Virus record (IMG/VR): IMGVR_UViG_2778261631_000002
Length of the DNA: 64,000 nt
From: a virus
Taxonomy: Duplodnaviria; Heunggongvirae; Uroviricota; Caudoviricetes
Direction: 5' to 3' (one strand)
Part shown: piece by piece, positions 101-49,002 of the stretch
Layout of the letters: every line of letters starts with the position of its first letter
Numbering within the stretch: the stretch's first letter is position 1
Made by a program: the position numbers and the translations under genes
Notes under the pieces: generated by a model
Databases searched by the model: none
Told to the model about the DNA's origin: nothing
What the model saw: only the letters and a program-made list of their open reading frames with translations

Positions 101-1585
101 TTATTCATTAAGCCATGCCAGAGCTTCATCAACCTGCGCTTCGTCTTCGACGCTAAGCACTTCATCTTGGGGAACATAGTTCGCCAACATAGCGAAACAA
201 TATGTATCCCAATGGTCCGGTGAGTGCAGGTTGAGTTTTTTCTTCATATCTTCCTTTGACATCACCTTCCATTGACCTGCGGAATTTATCCCTACCGGTA
301 TCTTTGATGCTTCCTCTATAGTCGCAGCCCCCTTATCAAGCCGCATACGCCCTGATTTTACAGCTTCTGCCGCCTGAATATTCGCGAAAGCGCGCATATC
401 GAAATAAAGGCTTTTATCTTCACGGCTGTGCATCTTTTTACCCCAGCGGATACGCTGGACGGTAATGCCATAGCGTTCGTACATTAGATCAGCCGTCGAT
501 TTCCCCAAGCCATCGCCATCAATAGCTATGGTTATGTTCGGGAACCGTTCTGGGTTACATTCTGCGAAAATCTTGGCGGCTAACTGCGTTTCTGTAACGT
601 CTGTGTATTCCAGCATACGATAGTTGATTACACGGCGTTTATTTCGCTGGCCGGACACCATCATGATATTAATAACGGACTTATCTCGTCCTGTGCCACC
701 AGCAACGTCAACACATGCAACCCAGCCCCATCCTTTGGCAATCTTGACCTTTCGCCGCGTCGCCCGCTCAACCTCATCACGACCAAGAAGAAAGCCATCT
801 TGAGATTTGGGAAATTCACCACGTACTTTGATCATGTACATGGGGTTATCACGACCGCCATACTCCGCAAGTTTTGCTCGTATAAATTTTGCATCTACAA
901 GCGGAGATTCTTCACTATTCAGTATTATCGCAGTAAACAATCCATCAGGATTTCCCGGGCGAATAGCTAGTCTGTGGTGTGAATCGTAGAAATAGCCTGA
1001 AGGTCGCGTAGGCTGGGAAAGAAGCAGAATACGGTTATCCTTACCGGTCAGCGCACCTGTTATCACACTGAATGCTTTATCACTCACACCCGACGCTTCG
1101 TCGATGATATACAAGAGATGATCGGCGTGTTCACCAGCCAACGCCTCCTCATTTCCGGGGCGACAGGACTTTATCAATATTGTCCAAACACCCTTGCCAG
1201 TCACCTCAAAAAAAGACGTTTCTGTAAGAATGAAATACTTCGACAACCACGGGAATCTGCTAACAGCAGTAGCCCAATTGCTCTTTATGTATTTGAAAAT
1301 ACCATCAAGGACTTGCTGTCTTTTGTTAGCGACCAGAATGACGCGAGCGCCGGGGAAAAACATGATGAAGAGTATTGCAATGATACTCGTCATATCCGAT
1401 TTACCAGTACCATGGCCGGAGGTCACACTTGTCCAACTGCCGTCCTGCTGCGTGGACTCAATGATCTCATCCTGCTGCCAGGTTGGTGTCTTCCCAAACA
1501 ACACATCAGCGGCCGCAATCCAGTCATAACGATATAGCGCCACAAGCTCGCGCCAACGTGGGTCCGTTACGCAACTTCTGGCCAT
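101..1585 (-). CDS. pacB: Terminase large subunit, P1 PacB-like
   Basis: 494-aa ORF directly downstream of pacA with a 1-nt overlap; size and position match P1 PacB. Confidence 0.85.
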
Positions 1586-4475: not shown

Positions 4476-4676
4476 TTATCTGCTGCCCGGCATTCTCTGT
4501 TTAAGCGCAACCATTTCCTGACGGCATAACACAGCAATAGCGGTCCTGACTCCAATTTGCTTACCAACCAGGTATTGCTTTACCTTGCGGCGACTCACGC
4601 CATCAAGAAGCATCTTTAACGCTTCACGGGACAATTTGTTGTATTTGCGTGCCATTAATCTACTCCGCAGAACCAT
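4476..4676 (-). CDS. Small basic hypothetical protein
   Basis: 66-aa ORF overlapping the 3' end of doc; true start may be the internal Met (MARKYNK). Confidence 0.3.
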
Positions 4677-5040
4677 ACAATCTACGTAACGTGTCGGCGA
4701 CAGAAGATACAGATATCTCGCCAGTCGCAGCGCCTACAGTAAGGTCTGCCAGTTCAGGTGAATCAAATACCTGCACCCCGTTACGGCGTAGAAATAACAG
4801 CGCACTGTTTAGCGCGGTACGCTTATTGGCATCATTGAATATATGCCCTCTCGCTGTAGCCACCAGGTAGGTGGCGGAGACTTCGAAAAGGTCGGTGATC
4901 TCTTCGTAGGCAACTCTGGCCTGAACTCTCCCGATAATGGCCTCTGCCCTACCCGGATCTGACATTCCCGGCAGGCCGCCGTAGCGGTTTATATTCGCAT
5001 CATGAAGCGCAATAAGTTCTTCCGGTGATATATGCCTCAT
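4660..5040 (-). CDS. doc: Doc toxin (death on curing), Fic-fold kinase
   Basis: 126-aa [28 protein letters not shown]... recognised as P1 Doc; 1-nt overlap with phd. Confidence 0.95.
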
Positions 5041-5261
5041 TATCGGTTAACCAGTTCCTTGTTGGTGGAGTCCAGGGTGTCAAACAGGGATGCAAATTCA
5101 GCATCCAGCGCCGCTTTTTTGTAGGCTTCGAAAGTAGCCTTGCTGACAATTACTGCTGGCTCACGGCCTCTGCGGGTGATTTCAACCTCTTCCCCGGCTT
5201 CAACATTGTTGAGCACTTCAGAAAGGTTGCCGCGCGCGGTACGGAAGTTAATGGATTGCAT
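5040..5261 (-). CDS. phd: Phd antitoxin (prevents host death)
   Basis: 73-aa reading from [32 protein letters not shown]; the ORF track adds two upstream codons. Confidence 0.95.
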
Positions 5262-39757: not shown

Positions 39758-41347
39758 ATGTCTCAATATTCAATTCAACAGTCATTAGGTAATGCATCCG
39801 GCGTCGCGGTTAGCCCGATCAATGCCGATGCTACGTTATCTACCGGTGTTGCATTAAATAGCAGCTTGTGGGCTGGTATTGGCGTATTTGCGCGTGGCAA
39901 GCCGTTTACTGTTCTTGCGGTTACTGAGTCCAATTACGAAGATGTTCTCGGCGAACCGCTGAAGCCGTCTTCCGGCTCACAGTTCGAACCAATTCGCCAT
40001 GTGTACGAAGCTATTCAGCAAACGTCTGGTTATGTTGTCCGTGCTGTTCCGGATGATGCGAAGTTCCCGATTATTATGTTCGATGAATCAGGCGAACCGG
40101 CTTACAGTGCGTTGCCATATGGTTCTGAAATTGAACTTGATAGCGGCGAAGCCTTTGCTATCTACGTTGATGATGGTGATCCGTGTATTTCACCTACCCG
40201 TGAGTTAACCATCGAAACGGCAACAGCGGACAGCGCGGGTAATGAACGCTTCCTCTTAAAACTGACCCAGACGACTTCGCTCGGTGTGGTAACGACCCTG
40301 GAGACACACACTGTGTCTTTGGCGGAAGAAGCGAAAGATGACATGGGCCGCTTGTGTTATCTGCCTACGGCTCTGGAAGCCCGTTCTAAATATCTGCGCG
40401 CGGTTGTTAATGAAGATCTGATTTCTACAGCGAAAGTAACAAACAAAAAATCGTTGGCGTTCACTGGTGGTACCAACGGTGATCAGTCGAAAATCTCAAC
40501 CGCTGCGTACCTGCGTGCGGTGAAAGTGCTGAACAATGCGCCGTACATGTACACCGCTGTTCTTGGCTTGGGCTGCTATGACAATGCGGCTATCACCGCA
40601 TTAGGTAAAATCTGTGCAGATCGCCTGATTGATGGCTTCTTTGATGTCAAACCGACATTGACGTACACGGAAGCGATCTCTGCTGTTGAAGATACCGGTT
40701 TACTTGGTACCGATTATGTAAGCTGTGCTGTCTATCACTTCCCGTTCTCCTGCAAAGACAAATGGACCCAATCCCGTGTGGTCTTCGGTCTGTCTGGCTC
40801 GGCGTATGCGGCGAAAGCTCGTGGCGTCAAGAAAAACTCTGATGTCGGCGGTTGGCATTACTCACCGGCTGGTGAAGAACGTGCCGTCATTGCTCGTGCG
40901 TCAATTCAACCGCTGTATCCGGAAGATACCCCGGACGAAGAAGCAATGGTCAAGGGCCGTCTCAATAAAGTATCTGTTGGCACCTCTGGCCAGATGATCA
41001 TCGACGATGCTTTAACTTGCTGCACGCAGGATAACTATCTGCACTTCCAGCACGTCCCATCCCTGATGAATGCAATCAGCCGTTTCTTTGTCCAGTTAGC
41101 CCGACAGATGAAGCATAGCCCGGACGGTATTACTGCGGCTGGTCTGACTAAAGGGATGACCAAACTTTTAGATCGCTTTGTCGCCTCCGGCGCTCTGGTG
41201 GCTCCTCGTGATCCTGATGCTGACGGTACAGAACCGTATGTGCTGAAAGTTACGCAGGCGGAATTCGATAAATGGGAAGCAGTCTGGGCCTGCTGCCCGA
41301 CTGGCGTAGCCCGTCGTATCCAGGGCGTACCGCTGCTTATTAAGTAA
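39758..41347 (+). CDS. Putative contractile tail sheath protein (P1 gp22-like)
   Basis: 529-aa ORF (about 57 kDa) following the head gene; size and position fit P1 sheath protein. Confidence 0.5.
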   Translation: MSQYSIQQSLGNASGVAVSPINADATLSTGVALNSSLWAGIGVFARGKPFTVLAVTESNYEDVLGEPLKPSSGSQFEPIRHVYEAIQQTSGYVVRAVPDDAKFPIIMFDESGEPAYSALPYGSEIELDSGEAFAIYVDDGDPCISPTRELTIETATADSAGNERFLLKLTQTTSLGVVTTLETHTVSLAEEAKDDMGRLCYLPTALEARSKYLRAVVNEDLISTAKVTNKKSLAFTGGTNGDQSKISTAAYLRAVKVLNNAPYMYTAVLGLGCYDNAAITALGKICADRLIDGFFDVKPTLTYTEAISAVEDTGLLGTDYVSCAVYHFPFSCKDKWTQSRVVFGLSGSAYAAKARGVKKNSDVGGWHYSPAGEERAVIARASIQPLYPEDTPDEEAMVKGRLNKVSVGTSGQMIIDDALTCCTQDNYLHFQHVPSLMNAISRFFVQLARQMKHSPDGITAAGLTKGMTKLLDRFVASGALVAPRDPDADGTEPYVLKVTQAEFDKWEAVWACCPTGVARRIQGVPLLIK

Positions 41348-41356
41348 GGGAATACA

Positions 41357-42172
41357 ATGAGCAAAAACTTTTTTCAATCCGGGGCATTTTTGGGGAATGG
41401 ACTGTCCCGTTTCGCTTTGAACTCTGATCCTGTGCAGCTGATGGAGTCTGCCCGAGCAAGCGCCGAACCGCCAACAGATCCGGTTATTAATAATAATCCG
41501 GAACCGGCGGCACAGACTAACGATAACGTTCCATCTGATCCGGCTCCTGAGCAAATCCTGGAAGAGAAAGACGGTAAAGAATGGACCGTTGAACAGGCGC
41601 ACCAGATGATTCTGGAAGCTGCAAATCGAAGTGCGATGCAGAATGCGTTGAGTGATGCGGCCGACGCCGTTTTCGCCTGGGCTGATAGCGGTGATCTGAC
41701 TTTCGACTCCCTTGATGGTTTCATTCAGGCTATCGCTGGTATCTCTGATGACGACGACTCCGAAGTTACAGAAGAACAGGACGATGCCTATAACGAAGCA
41801 TGGGCAAATGTTGCTGACTTCCTCGCAGCATGCGGTGTAGATGATGACATGATCGAAGCACTGGCTGACGATGAAGACGACGACGCTGCTGCTGATGTTG
41901 GTGCCTCTATCGCTGGTTTAGATAGCGACGACCGCGACGAACTGGAAGCGGCGTTTGTTGTTGCTGGCACTTCTGATGAAATGCTGACTGAAGCATTTAA
42001 GAAGGTTGTTCGTAACGGTGAGATCAAACTCATCCGTAAACGCCTGCGGAAAAAACGTCTGACTGCGGCTCAAAAATCGGCGCTGAAAAAAGCGCGTCGA
42101 AAAGCCCAGACCGGCGCGGCAAAACTTGCCCGCAAAAAGTCAATGAAACTGCGCAGTAAGCGCCTTGGCTAA
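41357..42172 (+). CDS. Hypothetical structural protein with acidic core and very basic C-terminus
   Basis: 271-aa ORF; poly-Asp/Glu region then KKRLTAAQKSALKKARRKAQ tail. Confidence 0.5.
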   Translation: MSKNFFQSGAFLGNGLSRFALNSDPVQLMESARASAEPPTDPVINNNPEPAAQTNDNVPSDPAPEQILEEKDGKEWTVEQAHQMILEAANRSAMQNALSDAADAVFAWADSGDLTFDSLDGFIQAIAGISDDDDSEVTEEQDDAYNEAWANVADFLAACGVDDDMIEALADDEDDDAAADVGASIAGLDSDDRDELEAAFVVAGTSDEMLTEAFKKVVRNGEIKLIRKRLRKKRLTAAQKSALKKARRKAQTGAAKLARKKSMKLRSKRLG

Positions 42173-42207
42173 AGGAGGAGGCCGGAGAACTCCGGCCTTT
42201 AACTTGA

Positions 42208-42789
42208 ATGGCACCTATACCTTATGGGGTTTACAGCCAGGCTGATGGTGTATCGCCATTTCTGAAAGTTACTTTAACGAACTCTCAGTACCAGGTTACC
42301 GGATATATCAGCCAGGGGGCAGCAATGAACATGGCCCAGAATTGGGAAGCGCCGTTTACCGGTATGTCCATGGGGTCTGTTGCTGGTGCTTTCAGTGGTT
42401 TTGCGCAGGTTGGTACTGAAACAACGTCGGTGGCCCGTTGGAACAGCTTAATGGTTTGGGAGGGGGGAACACCGCCGACTTTCACGCTGCCAGTAACTTT
42501 CATCGCTTTGTTTGACCCATTCACGGAGGTTTCAGGAGCTATCGCCGCATTGTCAGCGATGATTAGCCCGGAACTTAAAGATGCCAGTATTGGTGGTCGA
42601 ATCCCGGAGCGTGTGACGCTAAACATTGGTCGCCGGATCAACATCATTGATGTCGCTATCCAGGACATAAGTTTCGATCTCGATGCACCCAGGGACAGCA
42701 ATGGGCATTTCCTGAAAAACACCGTCAACCTCCAGTTGACCGGTTCTTCGATATATAACAGCTCCGATATTGTTCGGGCGTTCCAGTAA
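42208..42789 (+). CDS. Hypothetical structural protein
   Basis: 193-aa ORF in the late operon. Confidence 0.5.
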   Translation: MAPIPYGVYSQADGVSPFLKVTLTNSQYQVTGYISQGAAMNMAQNWEAPFTGMSMGSVAGAFSGFAQVGTETTSVARWNSLMVWEGGTPPTFTLPVTFIALFDPFTEVSGAIAALSAMISPELKDASIGGRIPERVTLNIGRRINIIDVAIQDISFDLDAPRDSNGHFLKNTVNLQLTGSSIYNSSDIVRAFQ

Positions 42790-42800
42790 AAGGATTTTAT

Positions 42801-43310
42801 ATGGGGCACAATAACACTAAGGGAAACCGTAAATTTATTAAGGGCCGCTATACTGCCAACGCGGCCAAAGGCGAACGACTGGTATCTTCTGAATTCCAGC
42901 TCACTTTTGCAGGCCATGAAGATATCAGCGTACTGGTTCGCACGTCGCAAATTCCTGAAATGACCCGCGAGGATGTGGAGGACTATGGTCCGAATGGTGT
43001 GAAGTTCAACCAGCACGGTCCAATTCGAAACTCTGGGGAAATCCAGGTCCAGTGCGTGGAGACTATCGAAGGCGATATTCTTCAGTTCATTAAAGATCGC
43101 ATTGCGGCGAAGGACTATGTTGATATCACGATGGCTGCTACCCCTGAATCCAAATCTTCCGGGGTTAACGCTGTGACAAAAGCTGCTACAACAATTGAAA
43201 TGTTGGACTGCAAAATCTACAGTGATGCAATCGACTTTAGTACCGAAGATGTGACTGCCGCTGTGCGCCCGTCACTTCGTATCGTCTACAACTGGATTGA
43301 GTGGGATTAA
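42801..43310 (+). CDS. Hypothetical structural protein
   Basis: 169-aa ORF, last gene before the AT-rich island. Confidence 0.5.
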   Translation: MGHNNTKGNRKFIKGRYTANAAKGERLVSSEFQLTFAGHEDISVLVRTSQIPEMTREDVEDYGPNGVKFNQHGPIRNSGEIQVQCVETIEGDILQFIKDRIAAKDYVDITMAATPESKSSGVNAVTKAATTIEMLDCKIYSDAIDFSTEDVTAAVRPSLRIVYNWIEWD

Positions 43311-43607
43311 GTGTTATCCCTTGTACTTTTAATCTTCTTCGGGGGAGGTTTACCTCCCCTTGATACAACCGCATTCCACCGCCTAGCGAATAGAGTAAAA
43401 TAACATCTTGTAAATACTCTGGTATGAAGTGAGTGTAAACTAACAGTTACCTATTAATAAATACTCCTATACTTTTCTACCTTAAATATTTAGTATGCAC
43501 ATGGTTAAATTTATGTAGCGTCAAAGTTTGTGAAGGCAAGATGTCCGTTAATCTTTGTCGAAGCATATATGGTTCTAGGAAGTATTGGCTTATTTAAGAG
43601 GAATGTC

Positions 43608-44600
43608 ATGTTACGTATCAATGATATGAGCAATATTATTGTAGGTATTTACAGCAAAAAAAATGAAGAAAAATCATTTGAGTATATGTACTCTTATCTG
43701 ACAAGGAAAACAGCTTATTTAACACGTGAGTTTATTCGTGATGGTAATCAGGATAAAGAATTATTAAAAAATACCTATATAGAAGCATTGTCTTGGCTTT
43801 TTGCAATCTGTGATAAACTTGAAATACAACCACAGGAAGCATTTTATAAAAAATTTCCTAGTTGCTGTCCTTATTGCTTAGGGGCGCCTTGTTCCTGTTC
43901 TCAAACACACAGAAAGCCAGAGAAAATAAGAAGCGCAAAAGGAATTAAAGATGAGCTTTTCAATAAATATAACGCTATTAAACCTATGCAATTTCCGCCT
44001 TATGCGCCACGAATGATTAATGACATCTATCCGTCGAATAGAACCATTTGGTCTACTTTTGGTGGGTTTTATCATTCATCCAGGTTATTCGAAGAGTTGG
44101 GTGAGTTGCAAGAGGCTTATGCTAAATCAATTGAAGATAAAAATTACAACAAAGAAAATCTTCATGAAGAGTGTGCTGATATATATGCTTGGTTGTTTTC
44201 TTTATGGGGGATTATTTTTAAAGATGATGATCTTGGCGAGGCGTTTGAAAGTTATTATCTAAATGGTTGTCCTGTCTGCAATAAAAGAGAATGTGTTTGT
44301 GTCAGTTATTCAGGGAAGATTAGTAAAACTGATGAGAAAAGAGCATCATTGGAAAAACTTAAACAAGAGTTAGAACTTCTCTTGAAGGATGAGACGACAG
44401 GTGAGTTTAAGGAGAATTTAGAGTCTGCTATATCTGCAATTAAAGATGCGATAGACTCAGGAAAAGATGCAGATAGCAGAAGAACTTTATCGGAAGTCGA
44501 AAGTGTTCTTGACTCAATCGAAAAAAATTCAGCCAAGATGTCTAGTGTGGCAAGTAACGCCCTTAATGTTTTTAATGTAATCAGTAAGTTATTCCAATAA
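43608..44600 (+). CDS. MazG/HisE-like NTP-pyrophosphohydrolase-motif protein with two zinc-ribbon-like Cys clusters
   Basis: About 330 aa from the Met with AAGAGG SD; FEELGELQEAY ... HEECADIYAWL (EExxE ... EExxD); CCPYCLGAPCSCS and CPVCNKRECVC; low-GC gene in an AT-rich island. Confidence 0.6.
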   Translation: MLRINDMSNIIVGIYSKKNEEKSFEYMYSYLTRKTAYLTREFIRDGNQDKELLKNTYIEALSWLFAICDKLEIQPQEAFYKKFPSCCPYCLGAPCSCSQTHRKPEKIRSAKGIKDELFNKYNAIKPMQFPPYAPRMINDIYPSNRTIWSTFGGFYHSSRLFEELGELQEAYAKSIEDKNYNKENLHEECADIYAWLFSLWGIIFKDDDLGEAFESYYLNGCPVCNKRECVCVSYSGKISKTDEKRASLEKLKQELELLLKDETTGEFKENLESAISAIKDAIDSGKDADSRRTLSEVESVLDSIEKNSAKMSSVASNALNVFNVISKLFQ

Positions 44601-44607
44601 TGGTGCC

Positions 44608-44650
44608 CACCGGTTTGTTAGAAAATGAACCGGTGTTGTATTATTTATTA
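44608..44650 (+). terminator. Intrinsic terminator after the MazG-like gene
   Basis: CACCGGTT-12 nt loop-AACCGGTG followed by TTGTATTATTTATT. Confidence 0.65.
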
Positions 44651-44954
44651 TTAAATTAATTTTAATCCTAATAGATGGATGTTTGTTGTGGATATAATTT
44701 GTTTAAGTTTTAGGTGTATTTTTCCATATATAATCTAGGTGGTATTAGCGAAGCAAGTATGGAATTTTGTTAACAGCTAGATATTTCTGAAAGTCATCAT
44801 GTCGCGAAGGCTATTGGGAGATATGGTCTGAATCTTTGCATGATGTGAAATAACTCCTTCTACTTCATTGTGTTTTACACTATTGGGGAGAAAAGGGTGC
44901 ATTGAGGTTACCAGACACACGAAGAGTGGCGGGGATCACTCCCCGCCAGGTCTC

Positions 44955-45110
44955 TTACCTTTCAGATTCGTAGGCTGTGAAGACAGTGACCTCCGTCTGG
45001 CCGGTTCGGATTCGTACCTCGCAGAGGTCTTTCCTCGTTACCAGTGCCGTCACAATGACGGTTAAACAGATGACGATCAGAGCGATTAACATCGCTTTTT
45101 GCTGCTTCAT
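44955..45110 (-). CDS. hok: Hok/Gef-family type I toxin
   Basis: 51-aa ORF MKQQKAMLIALIVICLTVIVTALVTRKDLCEVRIRTGQTEVTVFTAYESER with AAGGAG SD; hallmark Hok sequence. Confidence 0.8.
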   Translation of the reverse strand: MKQQKAMLIALIVICLTVIVTALVTRKDLCEVRIRTGQTEVTVFTAYESER

Positions 45111-45168
45111 AGCCTGCTTCTCCTTGACCTTTTGGTCGGTAAGAGGCTAATCTACGTATGCTAAGCAT
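44962..45168 (-). CDS. mok: Mok-like overlapping reading frame
   Basis: 68-aa ORF covering hok in another frame and starting upstream of it, as in hok/mok/sok loci. Confidence 0.4.
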   Translation of the reverse strand: MLSIRRLASYRPKGQGEAGYEAAKSDVNRSDRHLFNRHCDGTGNEERPLRGTNPNRPDGGHCLHSLRI

Positions 45169-45291
45169 AGATATGGCCTCAGATTAATGTTAAGCGTCTT
45201 GCAGGACGCGTAATGTTATCTGGGGCTTTCTTCTATCTGCTTTTCGGGTCATGCCTGAAGCAGATAGCCTCAAGCACCCGCAACGATTGTA

Positions 45292-45618
45292 TCAATGTCT
45301 GGCTTTTTTTCTATAGAAATCACCTGGAAGGGTGAATATCCACATCAGAAGAAATGTTGCAGCAAACATGATCCCTAATGGCCAGACCGCGCCAAAGAAA
45401 ATCCATACTAAGATCTCCTCTGCTCGTTCTTTGCGGTCGATATCGACAAGCATTTTTCGGCTGATCATGTATACACAGAAGCCAATACAAACATATCCTG
45501 CAAAAGCGATCGCTAACTGTAAAAAATCAGATTGCATCTCCGACCTCAAACTGAAAACGCCAGGTGACTCCAGATTAGAGCAATCTATCACCCCCTGAAT
45601 CCTGCCGGTATACCCCAT
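45292..45618 (-). CDS. Small membrane protein
   Basis: Two predicted transmembrane helices; true start probably internal (MQSDFLQLAIAFAGY), since the ORF track start overlaps repL. Confidence 0.4.
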   Translation of the reverse strand: MGYTGRIQGVIDCSNLESPGVFSLRSEMQSDFLQLAIAFAGYVCIGFCVYMISRKMLVDIDRKERAEEILVWIFFGAVWPLGIMFAATFLLMWIFTLPGDFYRKKARH

Positions 45619-46433
45619 TTTTCGTTATCTTTATTTTTGGCTAAAACCGCATTAAGAGCTTCGTTTACCGTCATGCAATGCGGTAGATTATCGAAGTTTG
45701 ATATCCCGCCAATATCAGGCGAACGCTTGTTCTTCAGGTAAGCATATTTCCGCGCAGCCGCCTCTACTTTCTGCTTGAACTCATGTTTTTGAGCGCGTTT
45801 TTTGGATAACCGCAGATTGTCAGCCTTTGCTTTTGCCTCAGCGATCCATGAAGTCAATTTTTTGAGTCTTGTCGTTCCGGCACCGCCGGAAACTGATCTT
45901 TTTGTTTTTTTAACTTGTGACTTCTTATTCTTTATTGCCACGTCATCCTGACAGGGGGAGGGGGTATCATTTTGACATGGGGGTGTGGATAAAAAATCAA
46001 ATAAAGCCAATGTCTTAGCGAGAACAGCTTTAACCTTGGTTGCGGCTGAAGAGATCTTTAATTTGCTTTCAATCAGCGCGTTTTTAGCGTGTTGTGCGAA
46101 GGCCAAAAAGGATGGTGTAAACCGGTACAGGTTAGCGCGGCGTTCACGGTGATCGCCGATAACAATCTCTACCGACAGGATTCCTTTGTTTACAGCTTCA
46201 CGGAATGCGCGAACGACGGTTGATTGGCTATAACCAGTTTCTGCCGCGATCATGCGGTGAGGCTTGTGAATGAAGTATTCACTGGTTGTTGCCGCGAGAT
46301 TTGCACATTGCGACAGGATATGCCCGGCGCTACGGGATAGACCGGAGTGTGTTACAAAGCAGGCCAATTCATAGCCAGAAAAAGTAAAATCGCTCATCGT
46401 TATACAGCTCAGGAAAGTGACTTTAGCCAGCAT
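45588..46433 (-). CDS. repL: Lytic-replicon initiator RepL-like protein
   Basis: 281-aa ORF downstream of kilA in a C1-controlled operon; size and position as P1 RepL. Confidence 0.55.
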   Translation of the reverse strand: MLAKVTFLSCITMSDFTFSGYELACFVTHSGLSRSAGHILSQCANLAATTSEYFIHKPHRMIAAETGYSQSTVVRAFREAVNKGILSVEIVIGDHRERRANLYRFTPSFLAFAQHAKNALIESKLKISSAATKVKAVLAKTLALFDFLSTPPCQNDTPSPCQDDVAIKNKKSQVKKTKRSVSGGAGTTRLKKLTSWIAEAKAKADNLRLSKKRAQKHEFKQKVEAAARKYAYLKNKRSPDIGGISNFDNLPHCMTVNEALNAVLAKNKDNEKWGIPAGFRG

Positions 46434-46462
46434 TACAATGCTGGTGGTTCTTACTACGTCTG

Positions 46463-47263
46463 TTAGCGCGTAGCCGCGACATGTACCAGCACACCAGCAT
46501 CAAGCAATCGCTTCATTAGCCACTGCTGACCTTTGCCGGTTATACGAGTCGTGAAAGAAATCCTGCTTCCGTTGCTTGTATCGATCACGGTTTCTTTGAG
46601 GGTGAAGTACCCACGGGATATGTATTCTTGTTTGGGGACGTTCCTGCGTTCACCGGTTGCGATCAGAATTCCGTTATCACGCAACCAGGTGAAGAGATAG
46701 TTTTGGCCCAGGCCGAGCACTTTGGCATAGTTGCCGATTAGAACCCCGCTGGCGGTAGCAACGCGTTCGGCGAATTCGACTTTAGGCGCATCCATAAGCA
46801 TTTTTTGCTCCAGCCGTTGCTTTTGCTCTGCCAGGTCGGCAGCCAAACGGAGAGCTTCAGGGAGACTCTGCGGAATAGCAGGTTGCAATCTTCCGGCTCG
46901 ATAGTCGATAAATGTCTGGTTTACCTTCAGCCGAAACGCGGGAGAAATCCAGCCTGCGTACTCCACAGCGAGCAATTCATGGGCAAACGTACCGCCGCCA
47001 CGGCCTTCGAACGAAACTATGCAATTCTGCATAGTTTCTTTTTCAAGCTCTTCGATGAGCTGTTTGGCTGACAGCGTTCTTAGCCATTGAGCTGGCGCTT
47101 TATGGGCACCGAGTCCGCTCGCTCTGTGTAGAGCATTAAGGTTGTAACGGCCAGCGCGGTCGGTCGTAATTTCAACACCACAAATAACAGGCAGAGTGGT
47201 TGAAGGATCGACATTTTGATGAAGGTTTGATATATTCATATCCGCATTGAATGTTTGTTGCAT
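46463..47263 (-). CDS. kilA: KilA-N domain protein with antirepressor-like C-terminal domain
   Basis: 266-aa ORF; C-terminal 120 aa paralogous to the C-terminus of the ant product. Confidence 0.6.
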   Translation of the reverse strand: MQQTFNADMNISNLHQNVDPSTTLPVICGVEITTDRAGRYNLNALHRASGLGAHKAPAQWLRTLSAKQLIEELEKETMQNCIVSFEGRGGGTFAHELLAVEYAGWISPAFRLKVNQTFIDYRAGRLQPAIPQSLPEALRLAADLAEQKQRLEQKMLMDAPKVEFAERVATASGVLIGNYAKVLGLGQNYLFTWLRDNGILIATGERRNVPKQEYISRGYFTLKETVIDTSNGSRISFTTRITGKGQQWLMKRLLDAGVLVHVAATR

Positions 47264-47332
47264 TTTTTCTCCAAATTTGCATCAACCTTCAATCACCAGC
47301 TCGAAATGGTGATTCTTTGCACTTAGAAAACG

Positions 47333-47349
47333 AAATTTATTAGAGCAAA
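47333..47349 (-). promoter_or_regulatory. C1 operator-like 17-mer (16/17) upstream of kilA-repL
   Basis: Plus strand AAATTTATTAGAGCAAA, about 70 nt upstream of the kilA start. Confidence 0.6.
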
Positions 47350-47426
47350 TTTTTCTGACTCGATCCAGATCGGGTTGGTCGATCTGCTCAGAAACCTGCC
47401 AGTTTGCTGGCAGGTTTTTTCTTTTG

Positions 47427-48470
47427 TTAACCTATTGCTACTGGTTTTAACAAACCAGCATCAAGTAGCTTGCGAGTTAACCACTGCTGGCCTTTACCCG
47501 TTAATTGGGGCGTCAGCCGTATCTGGTAGCCATTTTCATCATCCAGCACCACTTCTTTCACCGTGAAATACCCGGCGTTAATGTACTGCTGGCGCGGTAC
47601 GTTTTTGCGCGCACCAAAAGCCATGAGAATGCCGTTCTGGCGCAACCATGAGAAAAGGGCGTTTTGCTTAAGTCCAACGACCTTTGCAAAGTTCCCGATC
47701 AGGATTCCATTAGCCGCTGATACCCGGTCGGCAAAATCGACTTTAGGGGCTGCGGCCACCAGCTGTTGTTCCAACTGCATTTTCTGTTCTGCCAACTCGG
47801 CAGCCAGGCGTAGAGCGTCTGGTAATGTTTGGGGGATCGATGGGGCAGGGGAGTTTGCCTGCTGCAATTCTTCCAGTTTGTCGATCAGCGAACGGCGGAC
47901 TGCTTTTGACTCGCGCGCGGCGACTCGCAGGGCTTGTTTGTAGGTCATGGTTATGACAACCATAGGCGTACCGCCACCTGGCGGCACGGTTGCACTTTTT
48001 GTGTAACCGTCCTCACCTTCTAATTCGTCGAGTATTTTTTTGATGAATTTGTTGTTCCGAACCTCTGGTTCCCCACATAACTTACGCGCTTCATTGACCA
48101 TCTTTAACAGCGTCTGGCTGTCGATTGTGTCTCCAGTGTTGGAGATAACATTCACAGCTGGTGATGGCGTAGCTGAAGCAAAAGATGCTGGTTTTTTAAC
48201 ATTCAAATTATTACTGGTCATTCTATGTGCCTCCTTTCTCATTTCTGCTGCCACCGTTGCGTAACGTAGACGTCCTTGTTCAATCAAATAATCCCTGATC
48301 TCGGCTATCAGTAGCCTGTTGATCACAGCCTTATCTGTTCGGGTATAAAAACGTCTGGTTATCATGAAATAGTTGGCAATTGCGCCGGGGATCTCCCGTG
48401 TCGGCATACAGGCAGTATGCAGGGCGATCGCTTCGGCTATGTCATTACGGGTGACGAGAGGTTTTTTCAT
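47427..48470 (-). CDS. ant: Antirepressor Ant
   Basis: 347-aa ORF downstream of icd and the c4 RNA; shares its C-terminal domain with KilA. Confidence 0.6.
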   Translation of the reverse strand: MKKPLVTRNDIAEAIALHTACMPTREIPGAIANYFMITRRFYTRTDKAVINRLLIAEIRDYLIEQGRLRYATVAAEMRKEAHRMTSNNLNVKKPASFASATPSPAVNVISNTGDTIDSQTLLKMVNEARKLCGEPEVRNNKFIKKILDELEGEDGYTKSATVPPGGGTPMVVITMTYKQALRVAARESKAVRRSLIDKLEELQQANSPAPSIPQTLPDALRLAAELAEQKMQLEQQLVAAAPKVDFADRVSAANGILIGNFAKVVGLKQNALFSWLRQNGILMAFGARKNVPRQQYINAGYFTVKEVVLDDENGYQIRLTPQLTGKGQQWLTRKLLDAGLLKPVAIG

Positions 48471-48688
48471 AAAACCCCCTGAACGTCGGAAGAGAAGGGG
48501 AGGTTCCAGTAACTAAGTGAATTGCGCGAGTTAGTTGAAAAACGGGCAGTAAAAATGCAGGGGCCATCAGGCAATTGAGAGCGTGCTTCGTCTTCTGTTG
48601 CTGCGATGACGAAGTGATAGTGGTGTTTTTTGCAGGAATAGAAACGCCAGATGAATTCTTGGCGTGCGCAAGGATTGGCATTAACCAT
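48467..48688 (-). CDS. icd: Icd-like small protein (interference with cell division)
   Basis: 73-aa ORF overlapping the ant start, between the c4 RNA and ant. Confidence 0.5.
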   Translation of the reverse strand: MVNANPCARQEFIWRFYSCKKHHYHFVIAATEDEARSQLPDGPCIFTARFSTNSRNSLSYWNLPFSSDVQGVL

Positions 48689-48738
48689 AGTTACGGCCTC
48701 ACAATCAGGTTTAACAACCTGCTACCCGCTGCTAAACA

Positions 48739-48815
48739 GGTGGCAGGACGTGACGGGGTTAGCAGACTGGCGATTGTGAAACCAGCAGGCCGAAGCCTCC
48801 CCATCACGCCCCACC
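48739..48815 (-). ncRNA. c4: c4-like antisense repressor RNA (77 nt)
   Basis: Minus-strand GGTGGGGCG...CCTGCCACC with paired termini; contains CTGCTAA complementary to two GTTTAGCAG target motifs in the same transcript. Confidence 0.5.
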
Positions 48816-48935
48816 ATAATTTGGGCGTAACGCGGTTTTACGGACACAAAAATACCGCAATATCGGATATCTGCGGCTGTCCGCACAATCATTCAGGCTG
48901 CTAAACCCGGTCGCAGAATTTGCTACGACGGCGAA

Positions 48936-48964
48936 ACTATAAGCCTGAACGATTAAAAGGTCAA
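48936..48964 (-). promoter_or_regulatory. Sigma70 promoter of the c4-icd-ant operon
   Basis: Minus strand TTGACC - 17 nt - TATAGT. Confidence 0.6.
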
Positions 48965-49002
48965 TATGATGCAAAAAGATAGCATTCGCGACTTAAAAAT
49001 AC

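Follow-up and report, generated by a model that had tools for sequence, protein, structure and literature searches.

The minus strand of the window, from 45291 to 44895, carries what we take, at a probability of roughly 80%, to be a type I toxin-antitoxin cassette, hok/mok/sok, that is intact and belongs to the prophage hokD/hokW lineage, present as cargo in a variable region 3' of repL in a P1-like phage-plasmid; by the window we mean the whole stretch of 64,000 nucleotides that was analysed. The identity of the locus was settled from the list of open reading frames (ORFs), matches to Pfam, PHROG and Rfam, RNA folding, alignments and BLAST. The sequence elements, their homology and their predicted pairings are established directly for this copy, and their coordinates are collected in Table 1. 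The cassette is an ordinary copy of a well-known system and holds nothing biologically new. Both the system and the variable region are known, and the label hokD assigned by the NCBI pipeline (PGAP) already stands in public records.

Table 1. Coordinates of the elements of the hok/mok/sok cassette and of neighbouring genes in the window
Feature	Position	Strand	Basis or remark
Candidate hok promoter (-35 TAGAAA 45313..45308; 16-nt spacer with TG; -10 TACAAT 45291..45286)	45286..45313	-	Consensus scan
Predicted full-length hok mRNA	44885..45279	-	5' end ~45279 (Rfam start, R1 alignment); 3' end uncertain
tac box GGGUGCUUGAGG	45268..45279	-	mRNA 5' end; pairs with fbi
5' tac stem hairpin	45222..45278	-	Part of hok mRNA
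ucb box AAAGCCCC	45222..45229	-	Alternative tac partner in processed mRNA; Rfam consensus structure
mok Shine-Dalgarno GAGG	45180..45177	-	Sequence; invariant in alignments
mok frame, 68 aa	44962..45168	-	ORF list; ATG at 45168; +1 frame relative to hok
hok Shine-Dalgarno AAGGAG	45125..45120	-	Sequence
hok toxin ORF, 51 aa	44955..45110	-	ORF list, Pfam PF01848, PHROG 251; ATG at 45110
UACG motif at Tyr47 codon, candidate TadA A-to-I editing site (Tyr to Cys)	44969..44972	-	Alignment
3' hairpin	44927..44948	-	Part of hok mRNA
3' stem-loop GGCGGGGAGUGAUCCCCGCC	44928..44947	-	Inverted repeat I4, 100% complementary; expected 3' end of processed mRNA
fbi box CCUCAAUGCACCC, fold-back inhibition element	44895..44907	-	Pairs with tac
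Sok promoter (-35 TTGACC 45124..45129; 18-nt spacer; -10 TAATCT 45148..45153)	45124..45153	+	Positional homology
Predicted Sok antisense RNA, ~71 nt	45160..45230	+	Maps onto annotated SokW misc_RNA of 933W
ORF81, two predicted membrane helices, phrog_3772	45292..45537	-	Between repL and hok
RepL	45588..46433	-	Annotation; with Ant and KilA upstream of hok, same orientation
C4 antisense RNA	48736..48821		Rfam scan
MazG-like gene, 356 aa	43530..44600	+	Converges on hok; weak match to phage NTP pyrophosphohydrolases

A sequence-only reading of the window had called a 51-aa Hok-family peptide together with an overlapping mok-like frame, and the coordinates of both agree with the ORF list. The peptide matches Pfam HOK_GEF (PF01848) at 78.7 bits (cut-off 22; E 2.4e-22) over profile positions 1-42 of 42, and PHROG 251, 'MokW-like host killing', with an E value of 4.9e-32; against the NCBIfam Hok subfamily HMM it scores 49.5, under the curated cut-off of 73. 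At the protein level, it is 94% identical to K-12 HokD and 92% identical to HokW, while its identity to R1-type Hok is merely 43%. To place the module among known loci, we aligned it with an R1-type IncFII locus, hokW of phage 933W, a lambdoid prophage copy and an intact hokC-type locus. The mok Shine-Dalgarno sequence GAGG and the mok ATG are invariant across these five loci, the R1 type included, and the offset between the mok and hok starts in the window copy is 58 nt. In R1, the offset is presumably 58 nt as well, with mok likewise in the +1 frame. The hexamer TACGAA around the Tyr47 codon of hok is also invariant in all five loci, and TadA editing from Tyr to Cys has been reported for the corresponding codon in hokC, hokD and hokE (PMC5630033). 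Since folding of the region around the UACG motif in this copy gave no convincing tRNA-like hairpin and the prediction is weak, editing of this hok remains a lead from the literature.

The alignment with the R1-type and 933W loci bears out the assignment beyond the toxin frame, in that every hok/mok/sok element is present and alignable. The conserved blocks are GCUUGAGGCU, AGCCCC, GAGGC-N-AUG, AGCCUCUUACC, CAAGGAGAAG, the hok ORF, the 3' hairpin and fbi. When the whole window was scanned with Rfam, RF01794 matched at 45105..45279 on the minus strand with 113.9 bits (gathering score 59; E 3.8e-25) over the full model, 1-157, and the match runs on the toxin strand from the 5' end of hok mRNA, at tac, to the hok AUG. 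This family, named 'sok', is modelled in the hok sense, so the match certifies the structured leader, which contains the Sok complement, and not the expression of Sok. At its predicted 5' end, the mRNA lines up with GGCGCUUGAGG, the 5' end of R1. The candidate hok promoter ahead of it has 9 of 12 consensus matches in a sigma-70 scan, and its -10 box aligns with the TAGAAT/TATAAT of hokW and hokC-type loci.

Folding of the full-length hok transcript is consistent with the regulatory scheme of the family. A transcript of 400 nt folds at -156 kcal/mol, with a z-score of -7.5 against shuffles, and tac and fbi pair in the ensemble with a probability of 0.90-1.00, forming 12 pairs with one bulge and a duplex energy of -20.4 kcal/mol. 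The two boxes also covary, the R1 type being GGCGCUU/AAGCGCC as against GGGUGCUU/AAnGCACCC in the window type. In the predicted full-length fold, the mok Shine-Dalgarno sequence would be paired with ucb and that of hok with a downstream segment. This is the same arrangement as the translationally inert fold of R1 hok mRNA, as reportedly described by Franch and Gerdes. When the last ~40 nt were removed, a fold constrained to pair tac with ucb reached -135 kcal/mol against a minimum of -137, the two being 2 kcal/mol apart. The unconstrained minimum-energy fold of the truncated mRNA has another local hairpin, not the textbook tac-ucb pairing, whereas the tac-ucb hairpin is included in the Rfam consensus structure of RF01794. 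Hairpins had also been proposed to flank the locus on both sides. Two hairpins do exist, the 5' tac stem and the 3' hairpin, but both are internal to hok mRNA instead of flanking it. A hairpin equivalent to the 3' stem-loop is kept in all aligned loci.

On the plus strand, the letters of the TTGACC and TAATCT hexamers proposed as an antisense promoter are confirmed, 18 nt apart. A generic sigma-70 scan did not flag this promoter, because only 3 of the 6 letters of its -10 box agree with the consensus. Support for it comes instead from positional homology with R1 and 933W: the promoter sits at the position homologous to TTGCGC/TATCCT of R1 and TTGCCT/TAACCT of hokW, and in the alignment TAATCT is no worse than the -10 box of the functional sokW promoter. 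The Sok-like RNA that had been suggested for this strand falls on the same interval as the 71-nt SokW annotated in 933W. It is predicted to have a single-stranded 5' tail over the mok start and its Shine-Dalgarno sequence, a stem-loop at 45181..45221 and then the U-rich GGGGCUUUCUUCU; its fold energy is -32.9 kcal/mol (z -6.0). From these homologous positions, a Sok gene is predicted that has a promoter and a terminator of its own and is complementary to the region where mok translation begins. Between the window and 933W, 7 of 22 positions differ in the Sok 5' tail over the mok start (45160..45182), against 3 of 53 over the remainder of Sok. The clustering of substitutions in this tail may limit cross-talk among co-resident hok/sok copies.

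The hokW/mokW/sokW locus of 933W and Sp5 (VT2-Sakai) has 87% nucleotide identity to the module over 45291..44895 (BLAST against 933W). The homology spans from the promoter -10 box (45291) to the last base of fbi (44895) and therefore defines the limits of a mobile cassette. In addition to the similarity of the Hok proteins, the Sok RNAs can be aligned base for base, and both loci are borne by temperate phages; those with hokW/sokW are Stx2 phages, integrated and lambdoid, in contrast with the plasmid-prophage described here. As annotated in 933W (L002, 1616..1828), mokW is in frame with hokW, whereas mok of the window is in the +1 frame, and the difference is due to a single base upstream of the hok Shine-Dalgarno sequence. 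The in-frame mokW of 933W would be an N-terminally extended Hok. E. coli K-12 hokD (relF), next to relBE, shares its PGAP name and nearly all of its protein sequence with the window hok. However, the match of the K-12 locus is confined to module positions 168..397, beginning a little 5' of hok and ending at fbi, and the locus is devoid of tac, mok and Sok, whereas the window copy is complete. The R1/IncF hok/mok/sok locus (parB) has the same order of tac, ucb, Sok target, mok, hok, 3' hairpin and fbi. In contrast with R1, where the Hok protein is distant in sequence, the Sok stem-loop of the window copy is ~20 nt longer, and the terminator hairpin that directly follows fbi in the R1 type is missing. 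The hosts differ as well, R1 being a conjugative plasmid and the window a phage-plasmid.

The window belongs to a P1-like IncY phage-plasmid, and its region 41000..49000 is 99.98% identical to E. coli plasmid NZ_CP074369.1, in which the hok gene is annotated as 'type I toxin-antitoxin system toxin HokD'. The P1-type backbone is confirmed by the tRNA genes, the C4 region and the C1 operators. Three tRNA genes lie at 25715..25787 and 27431..27581, the P1 immI region with C4 and its a1/b1 targets lies at 48736..48942, and the C1 operator consensus has 11 matches across the window compared with 0.4 expected by chance. In BLAST against reference P1 (NC_005856), homology ends at 45574 and restarts at 43343, and rlfA-rlfB-pmgF has therefore been replaced (43344..45573) by ORF81, hok/sok and the MazG-like gene. 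The break at 45574 lies within the C1 operator Op55, of which the conserved half ATTGCTCTAAT (45574..45584) is retained and the remainder is replaced. As the sequence-only reading had suggested, P1 itself has no hok/sok; reference P1 has rlfA-rlfB-pmgF at that position. This segment is one of eight highly variable regions of P1-like phage-plasmids (PMC9603915). Our literature search for hok/sok in P1-like phage-plasmids found no paper on the subject, and only the variable region is described (PMC9603915). The stop codon of ORF81 abuts the hok -10 box, and ORF81 travels with hok in P1-like elements. Searches of NCBIfam and Pfam returned no convincing match to ORF81, to RepL or to the MazG-like protein.

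To see how common this arrangement is, we searched PLSDB (72,556 plasmids) and a set of 5426 complete E. coli genomes. P1-type repL is found in 515 PLSDB plasmids and rlfA-rlfB in 101, and at least 285 of the 515 repL-bearing plasmids have a contiguous repL-ORF81-hok/sok arrangement. The module itself occurs at 95% identity or more in about 500 PLSDB plasmids, and almost every P1-like plasmid sampled has the ORF annotated as intact hokD. No other allele is as frequent as hok at this site in the P1-like plasmids that have been sequenced, and reference P1 is atypical there. The sequence-only reading had regarded hok/sok as an additional killing module beside phd/doc. Both modules are indeed in the window, phd/doc at 4663..5261 on the minus strand; as an unusual addition, however, the claim does not stand, given the frequency of the allele. 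Related modules are present in 4722 of the 5426 E. coli genomes, mostly on the chromosome and with a median of two per genome, in line with a report that hok is enriched in prophages (bioRxiv 10.1101/2025.08.07.668861).

For this copy, we infer transcription, 3' processing, toxicity and biological role, and the mechanism is drawn by homology with plasmid R1 and hokW. A weak promoter would give a stable hok mRNA of ~390 nt, in which pairing of the 5' tac with the 3' fbi would bury the ribosome-binding sites of mok and hok, so that the full-length RNA would be neither translated nor bound by Sok. Slow trimming at the 3' end would strip off fbi, whereupon the 5' end would refold on ucb and expose the mok start together with the Sok target. 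As long as the element is present, the short-lived Sok would pair across the mok start and the duplex would be destroyed. If the plasmid-prophage were lost or transcription stopped, Sok would decay first, mok and the coupled hok would be translated, and the 51-aa Hok peptide would damage the inner membrane.

The most likely role of the module would be to stabilise the low-copy plasmid-prophage by post-segregational killing, alongside phd/doc. We place this role ahead of the others on account of the low copy number of the host plasmid, and killing of this kind is extrapolated to the module from plasmid R1. The type II phd/doc system of P1 has the same presumed pay-off, in that cells from which the plasmid-prophage has been lost are killed or arrested. 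It is protein-based, however, shows no relationship to hok/sok and lies 40 kb from hok. It belongs to the conserved P1 core, not to a variable region (PMC9603915). Two killing modules that are unrelated to each other, phd/doc and hok/sok, are thus combined in the P1-like element described here; as P1-like elements increasingly carry resistance genes, a second addiction module may aid their persistence. Beyond correct annotation, the finding matters little, being an expected property of a well-studied family. HokW is toxic and is counteracted by SokW made from its own promoter, partly through RNase III and Hfq (PMC8621323), and the assays of hokW-sokW concerned lysis, not plasmid stabilisation (PMC8621323). 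According to a preprint that cites Pedersen and Gerdes (bioRxiv 10.1101/2025.08.07.668861), those chromosomal E. coli hok loci that had been tested earlier did not mediate post-segregational killing.

Those lysis assays bear on another role, which we regard as possible but rather unlikely: the same intact module could be mainly lytic, with Hok damaging the membrane and thereby speeding lysis and phage release. The trigger would be the loss of Sok on induction, or its being overridden by read-through from the C1-controlled kilA-repL operon, and such a role could coexist with post-segregational killing. For hokW-sokW in Sp5, SokW vanishes after mitomycin C, HokW precedes the endolysin, and phage release is about halved when the locus is absent (PMC8621323). 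In the window, the module is co-oriented with repL and ORF81 and lies directly 3' of them, with a weak terminator of a 5-bp hairpin in between (45335..45320). Upstream, there is a C1 operator with one mismatch (47333..47349), taken as Op53 of the kilA-repL operon. The lysis-helper alternative is live because the cassette follows a C1-controlled lytic replicon directly, behind this weak hairpin only. On the other hand, its support comes from hokW-sokW and not from P1-like elements, and reference P1 lyses efficiently without the module. Furthermore, a read-through transcript extended at its 5' end would not have tac at that end, so its behaviour is not predictable, which counts against the lytic role.

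We consider it improbable that the module is wired to the lytic switch itself, at the 3' end of a C1-repressed kilA-repL-ORF81 unit, with Hok serving as an early membrane-damaging lysis helper instead of, or beside, addiction. If it were, transcription could run through into hok on induction, or the convergent Sok promoter could be shut off, and the small membrane protein ORF81 might take part.

A role in abortive infection seems quite unlikely; here an invading lytic phage would stop transcription in the host, and the resulting decay of Sok would let Hok kill the cell ahead of phage maturation. Such protection is what was classically claimed for R1 hok/sok against T4 (summarised in PMC13047441), and other exclusion cargo is found in variable regions of P1-like elements. 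However, in a 2026 re-test, R1 hok/sok gave no protection against T4 in two strains and two vectors (PMC13047441), and this failure to replicate makes phage exclusion less likely. In addition, hok was not enriched near defence systems in a survey (bioRxiv 10.1101/2025.08.07.668861), and a PADLOC search returned no match for Hok or for its neighbours, ORF81 and the MazG-like protein.

Some evidence against an undisturbed module comes from the segment downstream of fbi. An insert at 43344..44882 (1.54 kb, 30-37% GC), which contains the MazG-like gene, sets the window apart from typical P1-like phages with hok, for instance MH422554. The insert begins 12 nt past fbi, so that the terminator found behind fbi in ordinary P1-like copies is displaced. 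Since no minus-strand intrinsic terminator was found 3' of hok before ~43340, about 1.5 kb away, the 3' end of the primary hok transcript is uncertain. The window copy could accordingly be functionally inert or misregulated, either as a passive passenger or because the MazG-like insertion disturbs it, and relatives do decay at this site, by an IS186-like element in NZ_CP122597.1 and down to a 147-nt remnant in NZ_CP148411.1. Several chromosomal hok loci would be parallel passive passengers, and K-12 hokD keeps the hok-to-fbi part only. We nevertheless find an inert copy doubtful, as every regulatory element is intact in the window and the module is 100% identical to that of NZ_CP122597.1 up to the insertion point of the IS186-like element. 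Six differences separate it from MH422554, including one in the 5' stem and two in the 3' stem-loop, and none affects tac, fbi, the promoter, the Shine-Dalgarno or the coding elements. The insert is found in only 17 PLSDB plasmids, which share it at 99.7% identity or more. Moreover, all 10 plasmid records that match the entire 701-bp stretch across the insert junction and hok annotate a protein-coding gene under it, which is called hokD in 9 of them. A decayed remnant of the K-12 hokD kind was rejected, because all upstream elements are present in the window copy.

The two kinds of disrupted relatives differ in what they keep. In NZ_CP122597.1 (L009, 3361..4700), the IS186-like element, identified by its terminal repeats CATAAGCGCTAACTTAAGGGTTG and a 426-aa ORF, interrupts the 3' stem-loop of hok, so that fbi is cut off from the body of the mRNA. 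Such an element in the hok stem-loop is seen in a sizeable group of P1-like plasmids and is similar to the IS186 insertions at hokC and hokE in K-12. In NZ_CP148411.1 (L010, 2501..2647), the first 147 nt of the module remain, comprising tac, the Sok body and the Sok -10 box. The hok ORF and the Sok -35 box are replaced there by another gene, and decayed remnants of this type occur in some P1-like plasmids.
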